The translations under genes and the position numbers were made by a program. A stretch of DNA of 13,693 bases from a virus, in UHGV virus genome UHGV-0482402; one strand, 5' to 3'. Of this stretch, positions 3,503 through 12,834 are shown piece by piece. Position 1 is the first letter of the stretch. Each line of letters opens with the position of its first letter. Below the pieces are notes generated by a model. That model had not been told where the DNA came from. It ran no database searches and saw only the letters and a program-made list of their open reading frames with translations.

Positions 3503-6088
3503 CTACTCTATCTCTTTTGCTTTTTTAATTATCAATTCAAGCTCTGTTAAACGAGATTCAATACGTTCACACCTTCTTCGCTGGAATGCAGCCTCCAACC
3601 ACAAACATTCATCTGGACGCAATCCCCAACGCTCACCAGCATGTACAACCAGTTCCGTGTCACCAGTATCGTATTCTTCAAAGTATTCGTGAACGATGTC
3701 TTCTCCTTCAGGGGATTTAGCTATAAATGACACCTTGCGCTGTGCCATTACAGGTTGGTACTCATCATCCCATTTATCATGACATAGCAAGCCAAATCTT
3801 GTTCCATCTATCCCCTTTGCAAGAAACGCATCTCTTACCTGCTGTGCAATTGCTCCGAAATGCCAACGAGCAGTATCCGAACCTTTAGCCTTAATATCGG
3901 ACAACCACTGGTAAACGATAATATTTACGTCACCCCATGCGTCAAGAATTGCATCCTGATCCACCTCCATGATTTCTGAAAGTTGCTCTACTGTCAGTGG
4001 CTTTGTTTTCAATGTCTGGTCTGAAGTATTTATTGCCCCATTAGTTGCATATACTTGCGTCCACCGTTTAGATGATGTCCCACATGATGACGTATTATCT
4101 TTATTAGCACTTATATAGCCATTAACCTCCGCTGACTGACCGATATACGAATATGAAGATGTTGATAAGGGAGATTTAAATATCCATTGAGCATTGGTAA
4201 AGTCATAAATACCGGTATCACCTTTTTCACTAACATGAAAAGTTACATTCCGTAACGTATTCTTTGCATCATAACGGGCGGCTTGTGTTGTTGCCCTCGA
4301 AACAGTGAATCCTTTGTCATCAAGGTTTGCCTGCTCTATGACTTCACCACCAGGCATAATTTTACCAAGGCTTAACAAACCAGAGTTAGTGACAATATCA
4401 TGGGTTGAATCAATGATAATACCAGGCTGATTTCTTGATGTTGTTTTTACATGCATTACCTGTTGTGGCATTAATGTGTAAAATGTAGTTTCTCGCCCAC
4501 TATCACCATCTGGTATGCCATTTGTATTCCCCATTACAAGGTCATACCCACCTGCAATCATACGGAAAAACATTGCTTCTGGTTCATATGTAAGATTGCT
4601 AACATCTGGCGTTCCGGTATCATTTGGATCTGCTATTTCATAGGCTCTTCCTGCACCTGCCTGTATTTGCTGCACCCCAAGATAAACACCATCAAGTGTG
4701 TACTGATGCAAATATTTTCTGGTTGAAGAATATGCAGATCCAGCCTGACAAAAATAAATAGCAGTACCGTCACACGCAACTGTTTGCATATCCCTCACAA
4801 AATCGGCAATTTCAAATTCAAAAGTTGCTTCATTACGATAATCGTAATTGTACGCCTGCGGGTTAATAAATTTGCTGGTATCAAATACTTTTACATAATA
4901 GCGAATTTGATCTGGTGTTGATGGGCTCTCACCAGGGCCAACATAACGTTTTGCTGTAGTAATCAGCCATCGACTCATAGGGTCGGTGCATAAAACATTT
5001 ACCTGATTCTCGTAACCATCTTCCCATATGAGAAAAAACTCTGGTTCAATTTCACCACCATCAGTAGGGGTGAATCTGGTGATATACTTTGCGCGATCCT
5101 CTCCTTTAGCTGTGCCAGCTAACCCCCATATCTGTAACTGGCCTCTTGTGTTACGAAAACCAACGCGCCCTATGGTTAAACCAAGACATTGATGTCCTAA
5201 TTCTCTACTACCTTTAGTCTCCCAAAGAGGAGTTAACTCTTCATTCCCAAACCAATTATAAGCAACAACTTTATTAACTTCATCACCAGAACTAACGCTG
5301 CCACTCACATTTACCAAGCAATAAAGAACACTGTCATAATAATCAAGAACAGCACCCTGTATGACAGTATTTTTAATTGTTGCCAGTCGCAACCCTGACT
5401 TAACATGATTAGGAGTAGAAGGTCTGAAACCTGTATACATCCCCTTTTTTATAGTTTGTATTCTTTTTTCAGTAAAATCAGCATCTGGCAGTAATCGATT
5501 CTCTGTGCGAAAATAGCCATTTATATACTTATTTCCATCAAAAACTTGATCTGTTATATATGTATTACCCCTTAGATCAACAATCCTTCCTGTGATTTGT
5601 TTTTCTAACTCTTGAAAAGATAATGTGTCATCGGTGATGCCATCACCTTTTGCTCCCCATCCGCGAGGGTCAGCGTCATCACGCCACCGAGACATCTGCA
5701 ATTCATGATATTTTTTAGCACCTTCCGGGTCTTCTAATTGTTGTCTTAATTGGTCTGGATCGTACTTAAGCACATTCGGAAAATAGAACTGCTGCGTACC
5801 ATATGCATCGTAAACAGCCATAGAATGGCCTTGCACGGTAACGAATTTGGAAATCTGTCCGTTGTATACCGGGTATCCAGCAGCATTGATAACGATTGGC
5901 TGTGGCACCTGAACATAAGTACCATCTTCTCGTTCCAGATATACTGGAATCTGGTTTTCTGGATTTACCGGATCTGTGTCAATCTTACCGATATAAATTT
6001 TTCCATTTGCTACGGTTTTAAAAGAGCTAGCCATTGTGAAGAGTTGCGATGGCATACCTATCACAACATTTGGGGTTATATCAGGCAT
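3503..6088 (-). CDS. tailspike protein: P22 gp9-type head-binding domain, central pectate-lyase-type beta-helix (putative polysaccharide depolymerase) and C-terminal S74-type intramolecular chaperone
   Basis: The N-terminus [50 protein letters not shown]...[13 protein letters not shown]...NVLKYDPDQ matches the recalled P22 tailspike N-terminus (MTDITANVVV...[27 protein letters not shown]...[13 protein letters not shown]...NVLKYDPDQ). [13 protein letters not shown] beta-helix signature follows. The C-terminal roughly 173 aa begin at NTSDQTLK (Ser codon at 4022-4024) and end in a coiled coil. The start is placed at the ATG at 6088 (AGGA 8 nt upstream), not at the track start 6181. Confidence 0.9.
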
Positions 6089-6430
6089 ATTAGTCATCCT
6101 GTTTGAAGATTTAGATATTGAAGAAAACGGAATGACTGCAGACAACGATGCAATTGTTTTGAAAAATAACCTTCTATTCATTTAAAAACCATGCAACATG
6201 AACAAAACGATTATTTTACAATACTCAAGAATCTTGATCAACAGGCATATTATTTATGCGCTTAATGCGTCACTTACAAAAATAAAAACAAGTAATACCT
6301 TTATTCCTATCGTCCATGATTTTTATTTTCAAACATTATTAAATAACAATTCCTATTTATAATATCTGTCATTTAATTTGCTCCAGATACAAGTAATCGC
6401 TGCAGCGTGGCTACGGTGAATTTTGGGCAT

Positions 6431-7375: not shown

Positions 7376-7447
7376 GTTGGTTTTTCTCCACGGATTTACT
7401 GACAACCGAAGCCCTGACTGTTCCCGCAGTTGGGGCTTCAACTTTTT
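7376..7447 (+). ncRNA. candidate sar-like antisense RNA covering the ant ribosome-binding site
   Basis: A plus-strand -10-like TATACT at 7364-7369 sits inside the first ant codons. A plus-strand intrinsic terminator follows: stem GAAGCCC (7408-7414) and GGGCTTC (7433-7439) with an inner ACTG/CAGT pairing, then AACTTTTT. The roughly 70-nt product would be antisense to the ant Shine-Dalgarno and start codon, like P22 sar. Confidence 0.4.
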
Positions 7448-7591: not shown

Positions 7592-7677
7592 CTACACCGT
7601 GATAACTAAATACTACACCGTGTTTATTTAAAGTCAAAATTTTTTTGCCTACACTGTGTAGCTATGCACAGCGTGCA
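7592..7677. promoter_or_regulatory. divergent immI control region with operator-like repeats
   Basis: CTACACCGTG occurs at 7592-7601 and again at 7613-7622. A perfect 13-bp palindrome CTACACTGTGTAG sits at 7649-7661 and a second, TGCACAGCGTGCA, at 7665-7677. All lie between the divergent arc (minus) and RHH-1 (plus) start codons. Confidence 0.45.
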
Positions 7678-7686
7678 GGAGGAGAA

Positions 7687-7926
7687 ATGAAAGGTGCAAG
7701 AGATATCAGTCCATTGGGGATTAGGATTCCAGACTATTTAAAGAAACGCATTCAGCAAGAAGCGGATAAAAACGGCAGATCAATGAACTCAGAGATCGTG
7801 CTTATCCTTCAAAAACATGTTGATAATCTTGATGGCTCTCGCTCACTTGAAGGATTCGCTAACCAAGAAGCTGATAAATTCAAAGAGGCGCTACTTGAGA
7901 CGCTAAAGACCATGTATGGTAAATAA
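7687..7926 (+). CDS. ribbon-helix-helix repressor, Mnt-like architecture (RHH plus C-terminal helical oligomerisation tail), paralogue 1
   Basis: ATG at 7687 follows GGAGGAG. Translation is MKGARDISPLGIRIPDYLKKRIQQEADKNGRSMNSEIVLILQKH...EADKFKEALLETLKTMYGK. The N-terminal strand (RDISPLGIRIP) is nearly identical to that of the divergent Arc-like protein ([11 protein letters not shown]). Confidence 0.7.
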   Translation: MKGARDISPLGIRIPDYLKKRIQQEADKNGRSMNSEIVLILQKHVDNLDGSRSLEGFANQEADKFKEALLETLKTMYGK

Positions 7927-7943
7927 TTATTCAGGATGTGCCG

Positions 7944-8201
7944 ATGTCTGATCGTAAGTACAAAAACCCTCAAGTGAATCTGAGGCTTCCTGTAGAGATA
8001 AAGGAACGTCTTATTGAACTGGCTGAGGCTAATTCTCGTTCATTAAATGCTGAGATGGTCGCGGCACTTGAAGCGTGGACAGAAAAAAATAAACACATTC
8101 AAGCACTAGACCTTGCAACTATAGCATCACGATTGATAGATCTTGAACATGATGTTGAGAAGTTGAAATGCATGTATAGCAACAATAAAGACGAAAGTTA
8201 G
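7944..8201 (+). CDS. ribbon-helix-helix repressor with Arc-type N-terminal strand and a C-terminal coiled-coil extension, paralogue 2
   Basis: ATG at 7944 is 7 nt after AGGA. Translation is MSDRKYKNPQVNLRLPVEIKERLIELAEANSRSLNAEMVAALEAW..., and its N-terminus resembles recalled P22 Arc (..PQFNLRWPREV..). Confidence 0.65.
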   Translation: MSDRKYKNPQVNLRLPVEIKERLIELAEANSRSLNAEMVAALEAWTEKNKHIQALDLATIASRLIDLEHDVEKLKCMYSNNKDES

Positions 8202-8224
8202 AGATACTAACTTGGAGTGATGGC

Positions 8225-8479
8225 ATGGCTAGAGACGATCCGCACTTTAACTTCCGTATGCCTTTGGAAGTAAGAGAAAAATTGAAATTAAGAGCAGAGG
8301 CTAACGGAAGGTCAATGAACTCAGAGTTATTACAAATCGTTCAGGATGCGCTATCAAAACCATCACCGATTGCAGGCTATCGCGACGATGCTGAACGCTT
8401 GGCTGATCAGCAAGCAGAGCAGTTCAAGGCCGTTGTGTTTGAGACACTTAAAAAGATTTATGGCAAGGATGAAAAATAA
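8225..8479 (+). CDS. mnt: Mnt repressor orthologue (ribbon-helix-helix)
   Basis: MARDDPHFNFRMPLEVREKLKLRAEANGRSMNSELLQIVQDALSKPSP... is near-identical over the N-terminal half to recalled P22 Mnt (MARDDPHFNFRMPMEVREKLKFRAEANGRSMNSELLQIVQDALSKPSP...). GGAG lies 7 nt upstream. Confidence 0.85.
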   Translation: MARDDPHFNFRMPLEVREKLKLRAEANGRSMNSELLQIVQDALSKPSPIAGYRDDAERLADQQAEQFKAVVFETLKKIYGKDEK

Positions 8480-9015
8480 TGCTGCACACAATTCATTTCT
8501 TATGCCCCGTTAACACTGCCACTGTTGGGCAACTTCAGAACCACTGTCTCACCGCATTATCTCAAGGCGCAACTGAATTAAATATCCATATATCAAGTCA
8601 GGGAGGGGAAACTGCCGCTGGCTTTACTGCGTATAACTTTCTTAAGTCACTCCCTGTTACCGTTAGAACTCACAACATAAGCAATGTTGAATCCATAGCT
8701 AATATCGTTTTCCTGGCTGGCTCAGAACGTTTCGCAAACCCATTATCAAGATTCCTGTTACATCCTCTATTATGGTGCTTTGCCTCCCCAGCCGCCGACC
8801 ATGCCAGATTGAGAGAGTACGGGAAATGCCTCGATAACGATCTTGATCGCTTCGTTGAGACGTTCAATATCGACATCGGAACCCATATTAGGTGGGCATC
8901 CCTGATAGCAGACTCGACCATTTTGGATGCTAACAAGGCTCTTGAGCATGGCATAATTAATTCCATAAAAACTGCAAGGCTGGTATCCAATCAGGCAAAC
9001 TGGTGGGTTGTTTGA
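8479..9015 (+). CDS. ClpP-like serine peptidase (ClpP/crotonase fold), translationally coupled to mnt
   Basis: Its ATG overlaps the mnt stop (TAATG). LNIHISSQGGETAAGFTAYNF...NVESIANIVFLAGSERFANPLSRFLLHP lines up with recalled E. coli ClpP ([21 protein letters not shown]...[32 protein letters not shown]). Candidate triad residues are the Ser in ESIAN, the His in LLHP and a downstream Asp in IADSTILD. Confidence 0.65.
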   Translation: MLHTIHFLCPVNTATVGQLQNHCLTALSQGATELNIHISSQGGETAAGFTAYNFLKSLPVTVRTHNISNVESIANIVFLAGSERFANPLSRFLLHPLLWCFASPAADHARLREYGKCLDNDLDRFVETFNIDIGTHIRWASLIADSTILDANKALEHGIINSIKTARLVSNQANWWVV

Positions 9016-9309: not shown

Positions 9310-9492
9310 ATGAAAAATATATTAATTGGTTTCGTTTTTGGTGCAGCCTGCGCCGCCAGCATTAGCGTCATAGCCGCTCAGATTGTTGGTGGTAACTCAT
9401 ATCTAATGGGCTATGACGTCATGATAAATGGAGAGGTTGTTTGCTCAGACCCTTATGTATGGACCTCGACAAAAGAAATAGAATGTGACTAA
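9310..9492 (+). CDS. small secreted or membrane-anchored protein with N-terminal signal peptide (60 aa), function unknown
   Basis: [24 protein letters not shown]... has a hydrophobic N-terminus. The mature part has two Cys ([17 protein letters not shown]). A terminator follows. The Shine-Dalgarno is weak (GGA). Confidence 0.45.
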
Positions 9493-9493
9493 T

Positions 9494-9520
9494 ACCAGCC
9501 TGATGGCTGGTTAATTTTTT
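9494..9520 (+). terminator. rho-independent terminator
   Basis: ACCAGCC-TGAT-GGCTGGT followed by TAATTTTTT, immediately after the stop of the signal-peptide ORF. Confidence 0.5.
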
Positions 9521-9602
9521 CATTTACCTGGGCCATATTGACTACTTATAAAATGAGATCAATATTTAATCGCCCAATAACGGGTGTATGTTGAGGTATA
9601 TC

Positions 9603-9782
9603 ATGGCGAAAAAACCAGGTGAAAACACAGGAAAAAACGGCGGAATATACCAAGAAGTTGGCCCGCGCGGCGGTAAGAAAGGCAATTTTGCCACCGTCAA
9701 GGACAACGAAAGGCTTCCGCCAACAACAAAGCCAGGTCATGGCTGGGTATTGGATAAGCGAACTCCAGACAGCAAAAAGTAA
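9603..9782 (+). CDS. YjzC-like small protein (59 aa)
   Basis: ATG at 9603 is 6 nt after GAGGT. MAKKPGENTGKNGGIYQEVGPRGGKKGNFATVKDNERLPPTTKPGHGWVL... matches, by recollection, the Gly-rich G-x-Y-x-E-V-G...LPPT...GHxW pattern of YjzC-family small proteins. A double stop TAATAA ends it. Confidence 0.55.
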   Translation: MAKKPGENTGKNGGIYQEVGPRGGKKGNFATVKDNERLPPTTKPGHGWVLDKRTPDSKK

Positions 9783-9788
9783 TAATCA

Positions 9789-9810
9789 AGCCGGTTCACT
9801 CCGGCTTTTT
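9789..9810 (+). terminator. rho-independent terminator downstream of the YjzC-like gene (overlaps the last codons of the convergent HExxH gene)
   Basis: AGCCGG-TTCACT-CCGGCT followed by TTTT. Confidence 0.45.
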
Positions 9811-10161
9811 GATATGTCGTTCGCAGAACTCAACAAGCCTGCTCATTAAGTAGCAGTAAGTCTCGTTGGCTCTTCCTGGTTCAACATCAACACCGACCCT
9901 TGAGCAGATATCGAATGCCATGTGAGCGCACTCATGGGCAATAGTAGATAGTTTGCCATTGAACACGCCTATCACATGCAAAACACCATTCTCGCTGCTC
10001 ATTGTATGAGACGCTCCGTTGGCATCCGAGTCCTGCACGTCCACACCAAGTTTTTGATGCAGGCGTTGCCATTCTGGAAAGTCTCTACAAAACACAATTG
10101 TACCGCTCTCAAAGAGCGGTACGAGCATCTTTGGTACGTTTCCAATGTTAACTTTTTTCAT
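9796..10161 (-). CDS. minimal HExxH zinc-metallopeptidase-like protein (121 aa)
   Basis: HECAH motif within ...KLSTIAHECAHMAFDICSRVGVDVEPGRANETY..., with downstream Glu candidates for a third zinc ligand. AGGA lies 4-5 nt before the ATG at 10161. No transmembrane segment is evident. Confidence 0.55.
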   Translation of the reverse strand: MKKVNIGNVPKMLVPLFESGTIVFCRDFPEWQRLHQKLGVDVQDSDANGASHTMSSENGVLHVIGVFNGKLSTIAHECAHMAFDICSRVGVDVEPGRANETYCYLMSRLVEFCERHIKKPE

Positions 10162-10191
10162 GGTATCCTGCTCAAAACTAAGGAGGTTGGT

Positions 10192-10614
10192 GTGTTTGGC
10201 ATATTAACGAGAAGCAAGATAAAAAAATTAAGGGCGGAACTTGCCGAAACACAAAAATTAGCTTCACATTTTTACAAAATGAAACACGACGCTGAAGAGC
10301 GTGCATTCGTTGAGTTATGCGACCTATCTATTCGTATGGGGGTAGAGCCAGATGTAGCGGCAAAAACTCAAGAAGGCGTTAATATACTTGCAGATGTTGT
10401 TTTAAACAGACAATATGCGTTTTATCTAAACGAAAAAGCCATTCAAATTTACTCGCAAATTTTCCTCTTGGAAAAAAGGAGAGGAACTCGCGATAGAGAA
10501 GAGTGGCTAAATGAAGTTGTTAAAAAATCTGGCTGGGAAGTTGTTTCATCAGAGCTACCTTTTATTTGTGCTGATTTAATCGAAGAGGCAAAAGAGCGCC
10601 TATCCGATGGTTAG
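10192..10614 (+). CDS. hypothetical 140-aa protein, divergent from the HExxH gene
   Basis: Track ORF 9976-10614 trimmed to the GTG at 10192, which is 5 nt after a strong AAGGAGG (10180-10186); the earlier part overlaps the HExxH gene. The protein is a charged, helix-rich sequence with no family I recognise. Confidence 0.45.
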   Translation: MFGILTRSKIKKLRAELAETQKLASHFYKMKHDAEERAFVELCDLSIRMGVEPDVAAKTQEGVNILADVVLNRQYAFYLNEKAIQIYSQIFLLEKRRGTRDREEWLNEVVKKSGWEVVSSELPFICADLIEEAKERLSDG

Positions 10615-10646
10615 CCGAAGCCATCCTTGGCTTTATGGAGATTAAC

Positions 10647-10712
10647 ATGGTAACAGTTGGTTGGATTATCGCGTTCCTTATTGCATTTTGGGTTGGTCGT
10701 CACTGGCTGTAG
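10647..10712 (+). CDS. possible 21-aa hydrophobic micro-protein downstream of the 140-aa gene
   Basis: ATG at 10647 is 6 nt after GGAG. Translation is MVTVGWIIAFLIAFWVGRHWL. It overlaps the 3' end of the convergent gp16-like gene, so it may be fortuitous. Confidence 0.2.
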   Translation: MVTVGWIIAFLIAFWVGRHWL

Positions 10713-12834
10713 TATCTTGCTGAGATAACCATGTGATAAACCCCGTGCGAGAAATGGTTTTTGCTTCATCTGTTGACAGGGTTTTCTCCCATATCTTAAA
10801 TGCATTAGATCGCATCAGCTTCCTTTCTATTACGCGTCTCACTTCTGCTCTGTCTACTGGTGCGTTTTGCAGGCGAAATAGCATTAATTTAAACTCAGGA
10901 GAAGACAGTAGAGCATCAGCAGCCTTTATCCTGCTTGTTTTCCCTGACATCAATGCAGCCGATATTACCCCTGAAGCACCTGCTCCCAAAAGGCCAAATG
11001 AGCTTGTAATTCCTTCCGCCGCAGCAGCTTTTGAGACTATTCCATAAATTTTTGCGAGACTACCCTTTTCTTTCAGAAAGTTATTAACTTGCTGATCCAC
11101 AAGGCTACTAGCATACTGCTTACCAGTATTGAGTCTATTCATAGCCTTAGCTGCTTGATAAATCGTATCAAGGCGCTTTGATGCATCTGTGCCAATAGCA
11201 TCACGGAGAGCCTTCATATTGGCCCCATTGCGTGACATTCCGTTATACCATTTTACAAATCCATCAACTCCTAATTGCTGACCAGGTGATTTGGCATAGC
11301 TGGTAAATGCTTTATTCATTGAGGTGAGCGCAACTTCCTGCCGCATATCCTTTGGAATTGACTTCATTAATTGCCTAAAGTCACCACCGTTTCCTTTTGC
11401 CATATTAACAACGGCACTTTCAACTTTTGGAATTGCTGATTGCTGAAGTTTTCTACCCAAGACGGTTACAGCATCATCTTCAATGGATTTTCGTTTTTTT
11501 ACCAACTCCTTACCAAGCGTCCATAATTCCCCTGCACCATATTTTTCTGCGACAGCCTGTTGGTCATCTGTTATGGCTGCATATAACTTTTTAAGAACAC
11601 CTGTTTCTTCATCCTTGAATGGGCCAGAGCCTTTGCCAATAGCTTGTCCAACCTGCTTTCTAGCGAGATCTAAACGCCCATACGTTGGCAAGGTGTTTGG
11701 ATCAAGTCGGTTCAATGTCCGCTTCATTATTGGAGATAATTCATCAATTCCACCTATGTCATCAGCAAAATCCTCTAAAAAATTCAATGTATTAGTTGCC
11801 TCAATCCGGTCTCTTACAGGTACCTTTTCGGCAATTTTGTTGTAGATGTTATCTGACTGATTTTGTAATGATGAAATGGTTTTATCAAAATTATCTGCAA
11901 GCCTGTCAGAAACCAGTTGCTTATCAAGGTTTCCCCCAAATGAAGTTATCATTTCATCAGCTTTTCTTCCTAATTCAGTAATAAAACGCTTATGCGCCTC
12001 ACTAATCTCTGTTCCAGGGAGACTTGCCACTGCATTATCAAGAGCCCTGACAGCAGGATTATTAGAGATCATGCCTGGAGTGGCATAATTTTCCAGTTCT
12101 AGCTCACGAATAGCATTTATCGCGTTAAAATCAGGATTAACTTCATCGGCGAAATCTTGAATAGCTCGTTGCCCACCAATAAATTTATTATCCATTGCGC
12201 CAGCAGCTTTCTTTAACGTTGCTTTAGATGATTTACTACCCATCCCTACGGATGAGCGATAAATATCTCCGGCACTATTTTTAATTTTTCCTGCAATCTT
12301 CCCAAGCGCTGGACCAACAATCTCGGCTACAGGGCCAGCCACAGCGCCAATAGCAGCGCCGGAAGCAACATCGCTATTTGTTCCATTGGCTACAATAGCC
12401 CCTTCTCCAGCACCAAGCCCTGCGGCGGCAGCCAGCCTTGCCGCCCCTTTCGGAACCTGAGAAATAATCCCACCACCACTAACAAATGGTGCTGCTTGTC
12501 CAACGAACTCACCAACATCTTGTGCGGTTGATGGTTTTGCCGCTAACTTCTGCTGTAGAGACTGAATTGCGGCTTGCTCTTCTGGTGTCATGTCCTGAAA
12601 CAGGCCAACACCTTTACCAACATCCATCAATCCACTGAGAACGCCATACATAAAACGGTCGAAACCGTTAGCATTATTAACAACATTTTCCTGTCTGGAA
12701 TTTTCCTCTGGTGAAACCAAAGGAGATTGCTGCTGTTCTGGTTGGGAATCAAGCACAAAGCCATCAGGAAGCTGTGAGTTATCAGGCTGATTATCGAGAA
12801 CAAAGCCTTCGGGTAAACCTACATCGGTTGCCAT
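10678..12834 (-). CDS. virion ejection/injection protein (P22 gp16-like by position)
   Basis: 718 aa with Gly/Ala-rich segments (AAAGLGAGEGAIVANG..., GAAIGAVAGPVAEIVGPALG). Its start overlaps the upstream gene's 3' end by 16 nt. It lies directly upstream of the immI region, as in the P22 order 20-16-sieA-mnt. Confidence 0.65.
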   Translation of the reverse strand: MATDVGLPEGFVLDNQPDNSQLPDGFVLDSQPEQQQSPLVSPEENSRQENVVNNANGFDRFMYGVLSGLMDVGKGVGLFQDMTPEEQAAIQSLQQKLAAKPSTAQDVGEFVGQAAPFVSGGGIISQVPKGAARLAAAAGLGAGEGAIVANGTNSDVASGAAIGAVAGPVAEIVGPALGKIAGKIKNSAGDIYRSSVGMGSKSSKATLKKAAGAMDNKFIGGQRAIQDFADEVNPDFNAINAIRELELENYATPGMISNNPAVRALDNAVASLPGTEISEAHKRFITELGRKADEMITSFGGNLDKQLVSDRLADNFDKTISSLQNQSDNIYNKIAEKVPVRDRIEATNTLNFLEDFADDIGGIDELSPIMKRTLNRLDPNTLPTYGRLDLARKQVGQAIGKGSGPFKDEETGVLKKLYAAITDDQQAVAEKYGAGELWTLGKELVKKRKSIEDDAVTVLGRKLQQSAIPKVESAVVNMAKGNGGDFRQLMKSIPKDMRQEVALTSMNKAFTSYAKSPGQQLGVDGFVKWYNGMSRNGANMKALRDAIGTDASKRLDTIYQAAKAMNRLNTGKQYASSLVDQQVNNFLKEKGSLAKIYGIVSKAAAAEGITSSFGLLGAGASGVISAALMSGKTSRIKAADALLSSPEFKLMLFRLQNAPVDRAEVRRVIERKLMRSNAFKIWEKTLSTDEAKTISRTGFITWLSQQDTTASDDQPKMQ

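Follow-up and report, generated by a model that had tools for sequence, protein, structure and literature searches.

The sieA position of a P22-like ant moron as a fixed joint for exchangeable cargo, next to a candidate minimal metallopeptidase gene

In phage P22 and its relatives, the whole stretch separating gene 16 from gene 9 was named the ant moron by Villafane et al. (2008, PMC2629481). It is a region in rapid flux, with ten moron types in sixteen genomes, and is traversed by late antiterminated transcription on its way into gene 9; hkcC and 59a are given there as P22 genes of unknown function (PMC2629481). In phage HK620, hkcC has been listed as "unknown" since 2001 (Clark et al. 2001, AF335538). 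Although P22 serves as a reference phage, both genes have been without a function for 25 years. The neighbouring sieA gene of P22 is better understood, as 85 bp of upstream sequence suffice for its expression and for exclusion (PMC10883804). In the P22-like prophage BTP1, STnc6030, an antisense RNA expressed by the lysogen from between genes 16 and 9, excludes superinfecting phage (Owen et al. 2020, PMC7067206). Here we describe the corresponding interval, positions 9789 to 10712, of UHGV virus genome UHGV-0482402, whose whole analysed stretch of 13,693 nucleotides is referred to as the window. As already located in the initial annotation, it contains three open reading frames (ORFs), namely a 121-aa ORF, which is hkcC, a 140-aa ORF starting with GTG and a 21-aa ORF, the starts of the first two being 30 bp apart on opposite strands.

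By alignment and gene content, the window is a P22-like (Lederbergvirus) temperate phage and the interval studied lies within its ant moron. Positions 9500-10198 are 98.1% identical to P22 13824-14522, and this conserved block contains, in P22, orf59a, an ORF identical to the 121-aa protein (unannotated in BK000583), the annotated sieA promoter and the sieA start. The window also carries xis, int, a DinI-like gene, a tailspike gene with the P22 head-binding domain, ant, arc and the sar RNA, as well as three Arc-family genes plus mnt, a ClpP-like gene and genes for ejection proteins of the gene 16 and gene 20 types. The initial annotation had recognized a phage accessory slot, which agrees with the sieA position of the P22 ant moron and its variable cargo. 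It had, however, found no system that it could name, and in this it was mistaken, as the locus is the ant moron of P22, to which hkcC, orf59a and the sieA slot belong (PMC2629481). The kind of region, a phage moron site, was therefore already known. New here are a biochemical hypothesis for hkcC, the linkage of hkcC with orf59a, the description of a fixed joint at the sieA position for at least 11 cargos, a soluble cargo family and a conserved small ORF. Taken as a whole, the explanation that we consider probable is that the interval holds three independently assorting units (hkcC with orf59a, the sieA slot, and a hairpin with the 21-aa ORF), for whose products we infer the functions discussed below.

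The alignments identify the sieA position as a fixed expression joint behind which different cargo has been recombined. In a three-way alignment of P22, HK620 and the window, the sequence is near-invariant up to window position 10198, 7 nucleotides and thus less than three codons into the 140-aa gene, and random beyond. The conserved part includes the 85-bp PsieA region (10107-10191, plus strand), mapped from the P22 annotation by alignment, in which the annotated promoter occupies 10131-10161, inside the hkcC coding sequence, and the window differs from P22 at two positions only, 10120 and 10172. All statements on promoters and expression in the window are carried over from P22 in this way. 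The joint proper (10180-10194, plus strand) consists of the Shine-Dalgarno sequence AAGGAGG (10180-10186), five nucleotides and a GTG, and is common to sieA, hkcB, the 140-aa gene and at least eight other cassettes; the P22 sieA start codon maps to 10192, and sieA and HK620 hkcB share the annotated GTG start. The exact joint, AAGGAGGTTGGTGTG, was found in 58 sequences (57 fetched loci and the window), and the ORFs behind it are unrelated. Translated from its GTG, they give at least 11 products without relationship to one another: SieA (164 aa), an HkcB-like protein (109 aa), proteins of 109, 68, 62, 75, 106, 129, 99 and 149 aa, and the 140-aa protein, the last in the window only. The mosaic cassette of the window extends from about 10199 to 10618. 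Its right boundary is the hairpin AGCCATCCNTGGCT (10619-10632), and the sequence beyond is common to loci with other cassettes. This hairpin, AGCCATCCTTGGCT, a weak terminator on the plus strand, stands directly after the stop codons of four to five different cassettes.

Compared with the P22 sieA locus, the 140-aa gene thus lies at the same position, with gene 16 on one side and mnt/orf59a/hkcC on the other, converges on gene 16, uses the same start codon and has a flanking block (orf59a, hkcC, PsieA, Shine-Dalgarno sequence and GTG) that is 98% identical, which places it in the sieA slot. However, its product is unrelated to SieA, being 140 aa long, soluble and without a transmembrane helix. 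It does not belong to SieA types A, B or C, as the similarity ends after 7 nucleotides and the FxRYPxEAxxFNK motif of these proteins (PMC10883804) is absent. Similarly, HK620 has the same hkcC and places hkcB on the same joint and GTG, whereas HkcB, which is 109 aa long, starts with a hydrophobic N-terminus and contains a coiled coil, is unrelated to the 140-aa protein. The sieA slot is therefore a convenient place to harvest candidate prophage genes for exclusion or defence, among them the soluble 140-aa family and the unannotated 21-aa ORF.

The initial annotation had read hkcC and the 140-aa gene as a dedicated two-gene module, be it toxin-antitoxin-like, a regulatory switch or an anti-defence system, whose expression would be coupled by the tight divergence. 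The geometry is indeed close, since the start codons are separated by exactly 30 bp (10162-10191) and one promoter is located inside the other gene. The arrangement also recurs in the IMG/VR contig L098, with a 40-aa remnant of hkcC in L092, and Serratia L003 holds both genes, 395 bp apart. The partners are, however, swapped on both sides. The identical hkcC block faces at least ten other unrelated genes, at least 11 in all, and the 140-aa gene, which keeps 10 to 30 bp of the joint, has otherwise at least five different left neighbours, usually without hkcC. Among the 13 close IMG/VR copies of the 140-aa gene, a full hkcC adjoins only that of L098, and 11 of the 13 loci are devoid of a complete hkcC, the one with the remnant included. 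Among 5,426 complete Escherichia coli genomes, the hkcC block was found in 313 and the 140-aa gene in 30, and in none were they adjacent. In the P22-like prophage Serratia L002, the 140-aa gene stands 36 nucleotides after mnt with no hkcC, and distant members of its family occur in other phage types, again without hkcC. The two genes are therefore not a module, and we now regard the reading as a module as very improbable; as far as the compared loci tell, mosaic recombination at the conserved joint has brought them together. Where phage DNA is mosaic, tight divergence of two genes does not by itself make them a functional unit.

Two further statements on this pair are to be amended. Of the good Shine-Dalgarno sequences attributed to both genes, that of the 140-aa gene is strong (AAGGAGG, 5 nucleotides from the GTG), whereas that of hkcC (AGGA, ending 4 nucleotides ahead of the ATG at 10161) is only moderate. 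Each promoter had been placed inside the other gene. This is correct for the sieA promoter, which lies within hkcC according to the P22 annotation and the sufficiency of 85 bp, whereas an hkcC promoter inside the 140-aa gene is not required. Remote homology and structure, considered for each protein singly as the initial annotation had proposed, gave a zincin-type layout for HkcC and a helical hairpin without informative neighbours for the 140-aa protein.

The 140-aa gene (10192-10614, plus strand) starts with the GTG at 10192 and ends with a stop codon at 10612-10614. This start is backed by the start of P22 sieA, by that of HK620 hkcB, by the PGAP call in E. coli Ec15103 and by an ATG-TTT-GGA at the aligned position in Serratia. 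The protein belongs to an orphan, phage-only family, for which a set of 5.8 billion proteins yielded five clusters and one of 1.84 billion yielded 14 representatives. Its members all have a length of about 140 aa, begin with MF and share a conserved LNRQYAFYLNExAIQ motif and an invariant Trp. The gene is under purifying selection, as the two pairs that could be measured have dN/dS values of 0.08 and 0.16; dN/dS is given here for three comparisons only, as dS was saturated in most of the diverged pairs. No match was found in Pfam, NCBIfam, PADLOC or PHROGs, and a sequence-profile search of the PDB with the family gave no match at E<=10. The AlphaFold2 model (pLDDT 80) predicts a long helical hairpin followed by short C-terminal helices.

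In all contexts read, members of this family are antisense to late genes, including the distant members located beside lipoprotein genes in siphovirus tail regions. Expression of the gene in the prophage is to be expected from this orientation, from its place 36 nucleotides after mnt in Serratia L002 and from its PsieA region, which is that of P22 with two differences only. The 140-aa protein may be placed beside SieA by position only, since it has no membrane segment, unlike all ten other cassettes, among which eight encode a transmembrane-like segment and two a signal-like N-terminus (the annotation of phage Kapi1 backs the signal peptides). Judged from this position, its most likely role would be to shield the lysogen from other phages, and in contrast to SieA, which acts in the membrane, it would do so in the cytoplasm. 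Alternatively, it may be no phage-exclusion factor but other prophage cargo, such as a regulator, an anti-defence protein for entry, or a modifier of host physiology or virulence. We consider this rather unlikely, though its solubility, unlike that of any other slot occupant, the absence of any matching defence model and the uninformative helical hairpin are in its favour. Exclusion is favoured by the one studied occupant of the slot, which is an exclusion protein, and by expression antisense to late genes from a lysogen-active promoter, which is typical of protective morons (PMC10883804; PMC7067206), neither argument being specific.

Cassettes of the slot can accumulate as well as replace each other, because the prophage L088 carries two of them on one strand (4137-5423). 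A 129-aa signal-peptide protein is encoded upstream and the 140-aa gene is next to gene 16, and a pair of overlapping 92-aa and 60-aa genes, described below, lies between them.

On the other side of the joint, hkcC (9796-10161, minus strand) encodes a 121-aa protein that matches phrog_1365, a family of unknown function, with an E value of 1.4e-39 across residues 1-121, which was its sole match in Pfam, NCBIfam, PADLOC and PHROGs. It is 100% identical to the products of the P22 and HK620 loci (tblastn; over all 121 residues in HK620). A profile search gave 278 clusters at E<=0.01, of which the best 120 are all "hypothetical" proteins of about 110-200 aa without a Pfam domain, from Enterobacterales and Pasteurellaceae. 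Compared with a 77%-identical homologue, dN was 0.15 and dS was saturated. Like the 140-aa gene and the small ORF, hkcC is more than an accidental reading frame. Residues H76, E77 and H80, which form an HExxH motif within the predicted helix 71-89, are invariant in two sets of 18 and 22 family sequences. The invariant columns of the 22 diverse members further include a P-L-F, F83, C86, G90, N99-E100 and C103-Y-L. E100 is located 20 residues after H80 and starts helix 100-116 of the AlphaFold model (pLDDT 89, pTM 0.83), in which strands are combined with these helices.

The thermolysin family combines HExxH with a downstream NE at a characteristic spacing, and small proteins with this layout, the minigluzincins, exist. 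The HkcC model resembles the minimal zincins and gluzincins (the predicted 114-aa zincin 3e11, M3 oligopeptidases and the thermolysin-type HExxH...NE proteins) in its HExxH on a helix, its Glu 20 residues past the second His, its N-terminal mixed beta-sheet and its length of about 120 aa. Model and invariant residues together indicate a zincin layout with a putative gluzincin-type third ligand 20 residues past the second His. The claim of the initial annotation that the 121-aa protein is metallopeptidase-like is thus strengthened by the invariant HExxH, the downstream NE and the zincin-type layout, and also by weak fold matches that are enriched in zincins. In BFVD, 27 entries matched the model at E<=0.001. 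A few of these bear the name SprT-like, and one just above the cut-off is named metalloprotease. In such a protein, H76, H80 and E100 would hold the zinc and E77 would serve as the catalytic base. hkcC thereby gains a testable biochemical identity, that of a minimal HExxH/NE zincin.

It may be argued that HkcC is no protease and that its HExxH/NE site has another hydrolytic, a metal-dependent or a purely structural role, as in the SprT-like zincins that act on DNA-protein adducts or in zincin-like folds that are not peptidases. This is unlikely, given that none of 22 diverse sequences departs from the catalytic Glu of the HExxH or from the NE motif, whose spacing is thermolysin-like, and that the annotated fold matches are nearly all peptidases.

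No curated family could be assigned to HkcC by sequence, and it is therefore filed as a zincin-like metallopeptidase candidate rather than as ImmA/IrrE or SprT. Neither the window protein nor 18 family members matched ImmA/IrrE (Peptidase_M78, PF06114) in Pfam, even at E<=10, in agreement with the initial annotation, which had noted a size well below that of typical ImmA/IrrE peptidases. Compared with ImmA/IrrE and CapP (M78), HkcC has half the length and lacks an additional domain of the helix-turn-helix or GAF type. Nor is a cognate repressor substrate encoded next to it, its conserved neighbour being the 59-aa Orf59a. An ImmA-like cleavage of the neighbouring Arc and Mnt repressors is unsupported, as hkcC also occurs in contexts without an adjacent repressor. 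For SprT-like (PF10263), one of the 18 members gave a match, with an E value of 0.055, far below the cut-off, and the structural neighbourhood is limited to two phage proteins labelled so. A sequence-profile search of the PDB with the HkcC family gave no match at E<=10, and a literature search for phage HExxH anti-defence proteases returned nothing relevant.

The conserved partner of hkcC is orf59a (9603-9782, plus strand), which encodes 59 aa, is 97% identical to P22 orf59a and matches phrog_3202 with an E value of 1e-30. It resembles YjzC of Pfam at an E value of 0.005, below the cut-off. The two genes are convergent, and their 3' ends share a hairpin (9788-9807, both strands) that was found in the terminator scan and is annotated as the mnt terminator in P22 and as the bidirectional terminator tORF59A in HK620. 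Among 96 sequences with hkcC (95 fetched loci and the window), 79 also contain orf59a. In the reciprocal search, hkcC was immediately adjacent and convergent in 80 of 80 orf59a loci, these lists being the best 80 matches, in which near-identical prophages dominate. The pair is found on unrelated backbones, a P22-like podovirus and siphovirus-type prophages, in four further genera including Klebsiella, Rosenbergiella and Rodentibacter, and in all podovirus and siphovirus prophages listed orf59a was accompanied by hkcC. Of the two proteins, Orf59a evolves more slowly, with 71% identity in Rodentibacter versus 46% for HkcC, and its dN/dS is 0.09. The HK620 copy of orf59a differs in carrying a stop codon. 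The one-way linkage suggests that the role of Orf59a is tied to HkcC. The intuition of a peptidase with a partner, which does not hold for the 140-aa gene, thus fits better on this other side of hkcC.

Since orf59a is located downstream of mnt and ahead of the mnt terminator in P22, it is placed in a transcript expressed by the lysogen. In contrast, hkcC is oriented as genes 16, 20 and 9, and its homologues are co-oriented with late, structural or lysis genes in all contexts read. These are the interval between genes 16 and 9 in P22-like phages, that between the tail tube/chaperone and tape measure genes in prophages of Klebsiella and Rosenbergiella, and a place between head genes in Rodentibacter; members of a second hkcC clade have the lysis genes on one side and the small terminase gene on the other. 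With a gap of 30 bp and variable sequence upstream of it, a conserved hkcC promoter has no space. Because of this and of its late-gene strand, hkcC is most likely made only by antiterminated late read-through from gene 16. Within its 5' part, a 10-bp GC-rich hairpin followed by a T-rich stretch forms a terminator-like site on the hkcC sense strand (10100-10122, minus strand; codons V-P-L-F-E-S-G-T, of which V-P-L-F-E-S-G is invariant). This hairpin is partly kept in diverged hkcC homologues, with one compensatory pair in L119 (CCACT...AGTGG), and possibly attenuates non-antiterminated transcription entering hkcC.

Additional observations were made on the second clade. Some P22-like IMG/VR contigs (L082/L198, L050/L201 and L111/L194) contain two phrog_1365 paralogues, hkcC in the ant moron and a second copy from the other, about 40% identical clade, again in the stretch that separates the lysis genes from the small terminase gene. 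In a Citrobacter freundii prophage (L125, 5660-6372), the second-clade homologue directly follows a Tad2-like gene (anti-Thoeris, PF11195, E 1e-23), both standing between the lysis cassette and the terminase genes, which hints that this slot collects counter-defence genes. In 11 second-clade loci (L134, 4376-5014, and related ones), the next gene downstream encodes a 212-aa "putative phage metallopeptidase" (PF18894), so that two different HExxH proteins adjoin.

The third unit is found beyond the cassette hairpin. The 21-aa hydrophobic ORF MVTVGWIIAFLIAFWVGRHWL (10647-10712, plus strand) runs from the ATG at 10647 to the TAG at 10710-10712, as initially annotated, is preceded by the Shine-Dalgarno sequence GGAG (10637-10640) and is intact in two variants of 21 and 22 aa, MVTVGWIIAFLIAFWVGRHWL and MVTVGWIIVALLVALWAKNRYY, which start 26-32 nucleotides past the cassette stop codon. 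In 14 IMG/VR loci it follows one or another of four different cassettes, and in phage Kapi1 an unannotated copy with one W-to-S change follows a fifth. The Shine-Dalgarno sequence and the ATG are conserved between the variants, and the shared first eight codons contain two synonymous changes. The C-terminal parts have diverged, with the same length and hydrophobic character kept (hydropathy 2.2). The ORF overlaps, in antisense, the 3' end of the gene for the gene 16-type ejection (DNA transfer) protein homologue (10678-12834, minus strand; 718 aa; phrog_6704 and phrog_770), which is positioned as P22 gene 16 and is the last virion gene ahead of the ant moron. The overlap is 35 nucleotides here and 50 in Kapi1. 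The hydrophobicity as a mere by-product of lying antisense to gene 16 was ruled out, because about half of the ORF (10647-10677) is intergenic.

The conserved Shine-Dalgarno sequence, ATG and hydrophobic core, together with the antisense overlap, are features of a small hydrophobic peptide, type I toxin-like or membrane-located, as far as they can be read from DNA. The 21-aa ORF would accordingly encode a small membrane peptide, or else form the 3' part of a transcript made in antisense. An RNA-level role is a serious rival to translation because STnc6030 has the same geometry as the transcript predicted for the slot, antisense into the 3' end of gene 16, and mediates exclusion; the lysogen RNA of BTP1 is complementary to the gene 16 homologue at its 3' end, where the escape mutations cluster (PMC7067206). 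The 21-aa ORF might then remain untranslated, its RNA either terminating the slot transcript, or forming the 3' end of it, or acting as antisense seed on the 3' end of incoming gene 16 mRNA, and the overlap with gene 16 and the fact that no annotation calls the ORF agree with this. Against it stand the conservation of the Shine-Dalgarno sequence, the ATG and the first eight codons with their two synonymous changes, and the fact that the variants, for all their great divergence in DNA, have retained their length and, ahead of W and basic residues, a hydrophobic core. The Rfam scan also had no match in 9400-10900, its single match in the window being the sar RNA elsewhere. Unlike STnc6030, the transcript predicted for the window would carry the 140-aa gene and a conserved small ORF; no similarity between the small-ORF region and STnc6030 of BTP1 was found in the phage collection. 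On balance, we give the purely RNA-level role somewhat less than an even chance.

The proposals made for the individual products can be joined into one, to which we assign a low probability in this complete form. P22 and its relatives would harbour an overlooked protease switch, with HkcC made late and Orf59a made by the lysogen as its inhibitor or target, whereas the 140-aa protein would be a new cytoplasmic exclusion protein and the 21-aa ORF a membrane peptide. The link with Orf59a is its speculative part: as inhibitor or substrate of HkcC, Orf59a would connect a factor made by the lysogen with a protease made late. If this is true, the prophage could arm a lysogen-specific function and then dismantle it proteolytically on going lytic. 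The 140-aa gene and the 21-aa ORF would be delivered via the fixed joint of promoter, ribosome site and start codon, which would be a natural cassette-exchange site.

Several observations weigh against the explanation by three independent units and against the functions proposed for their products. Many of the loci counted are near-identical P22-like prophages and are not independent observations. hkcC is found without orf59a in 17 loci and in all 80 second-clade loci, so Orf59a is not needed for HkcC. The late expression of hkcC is deduced from its orientation only. The 140-aa protein was recognized by neither PADLOC nor PHROGs, and it lacks a transmembrane segment, its maximum 19-residue hydropathy being 0.75 versus 2.6 for SieA.

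Some features of the window outside the interval were also recorded. Like P22, the window has a full-length sar antisense RNA across its arc/ant junction (7376-7443, plus strand; Rfam RF00262, 95.6 bits), and the immI control circuit therefore looks intact. Three Arc-family genes follow in tandem on the plus strand (7645-7926, 7938-8201 and 8225-8479), the last one with an Mnt C-terminal domain. Directly after them, a gene for a 178-aa ClpP-like (S14) protease completes the region 7645-9015, its ATG at 8479 overlapping the mnt stop codon. The window differs in this from P22, which has neither the three extra Arc-family genes nor the protease gene; the ClpP-like gene recurs in other ant morons (L087 and L119).

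Between 9093 and 9492, a gene for a 92-aa coiled-coil protein (minus strand; phrog_7586, weakly XhlA-like) and one for a 60-aa protein (plus strand; phrog_37095) overlap by 62 nucleotides at their 5' ends. This overlapping pair is also present in Kapi1, where the 60-aa protein is annotated with a signal peptide, and in L088. Finally, the tailspike ORF (3503-6181, minus strand; 892 aa) ends in an endosialidase-type chaperone domain (Peptidase_S74), and its Pfam match to the head-binding domain begins at residue 32. As the ORF opens about 30 codons ahead of this domain, the true start is probably an internal Met.

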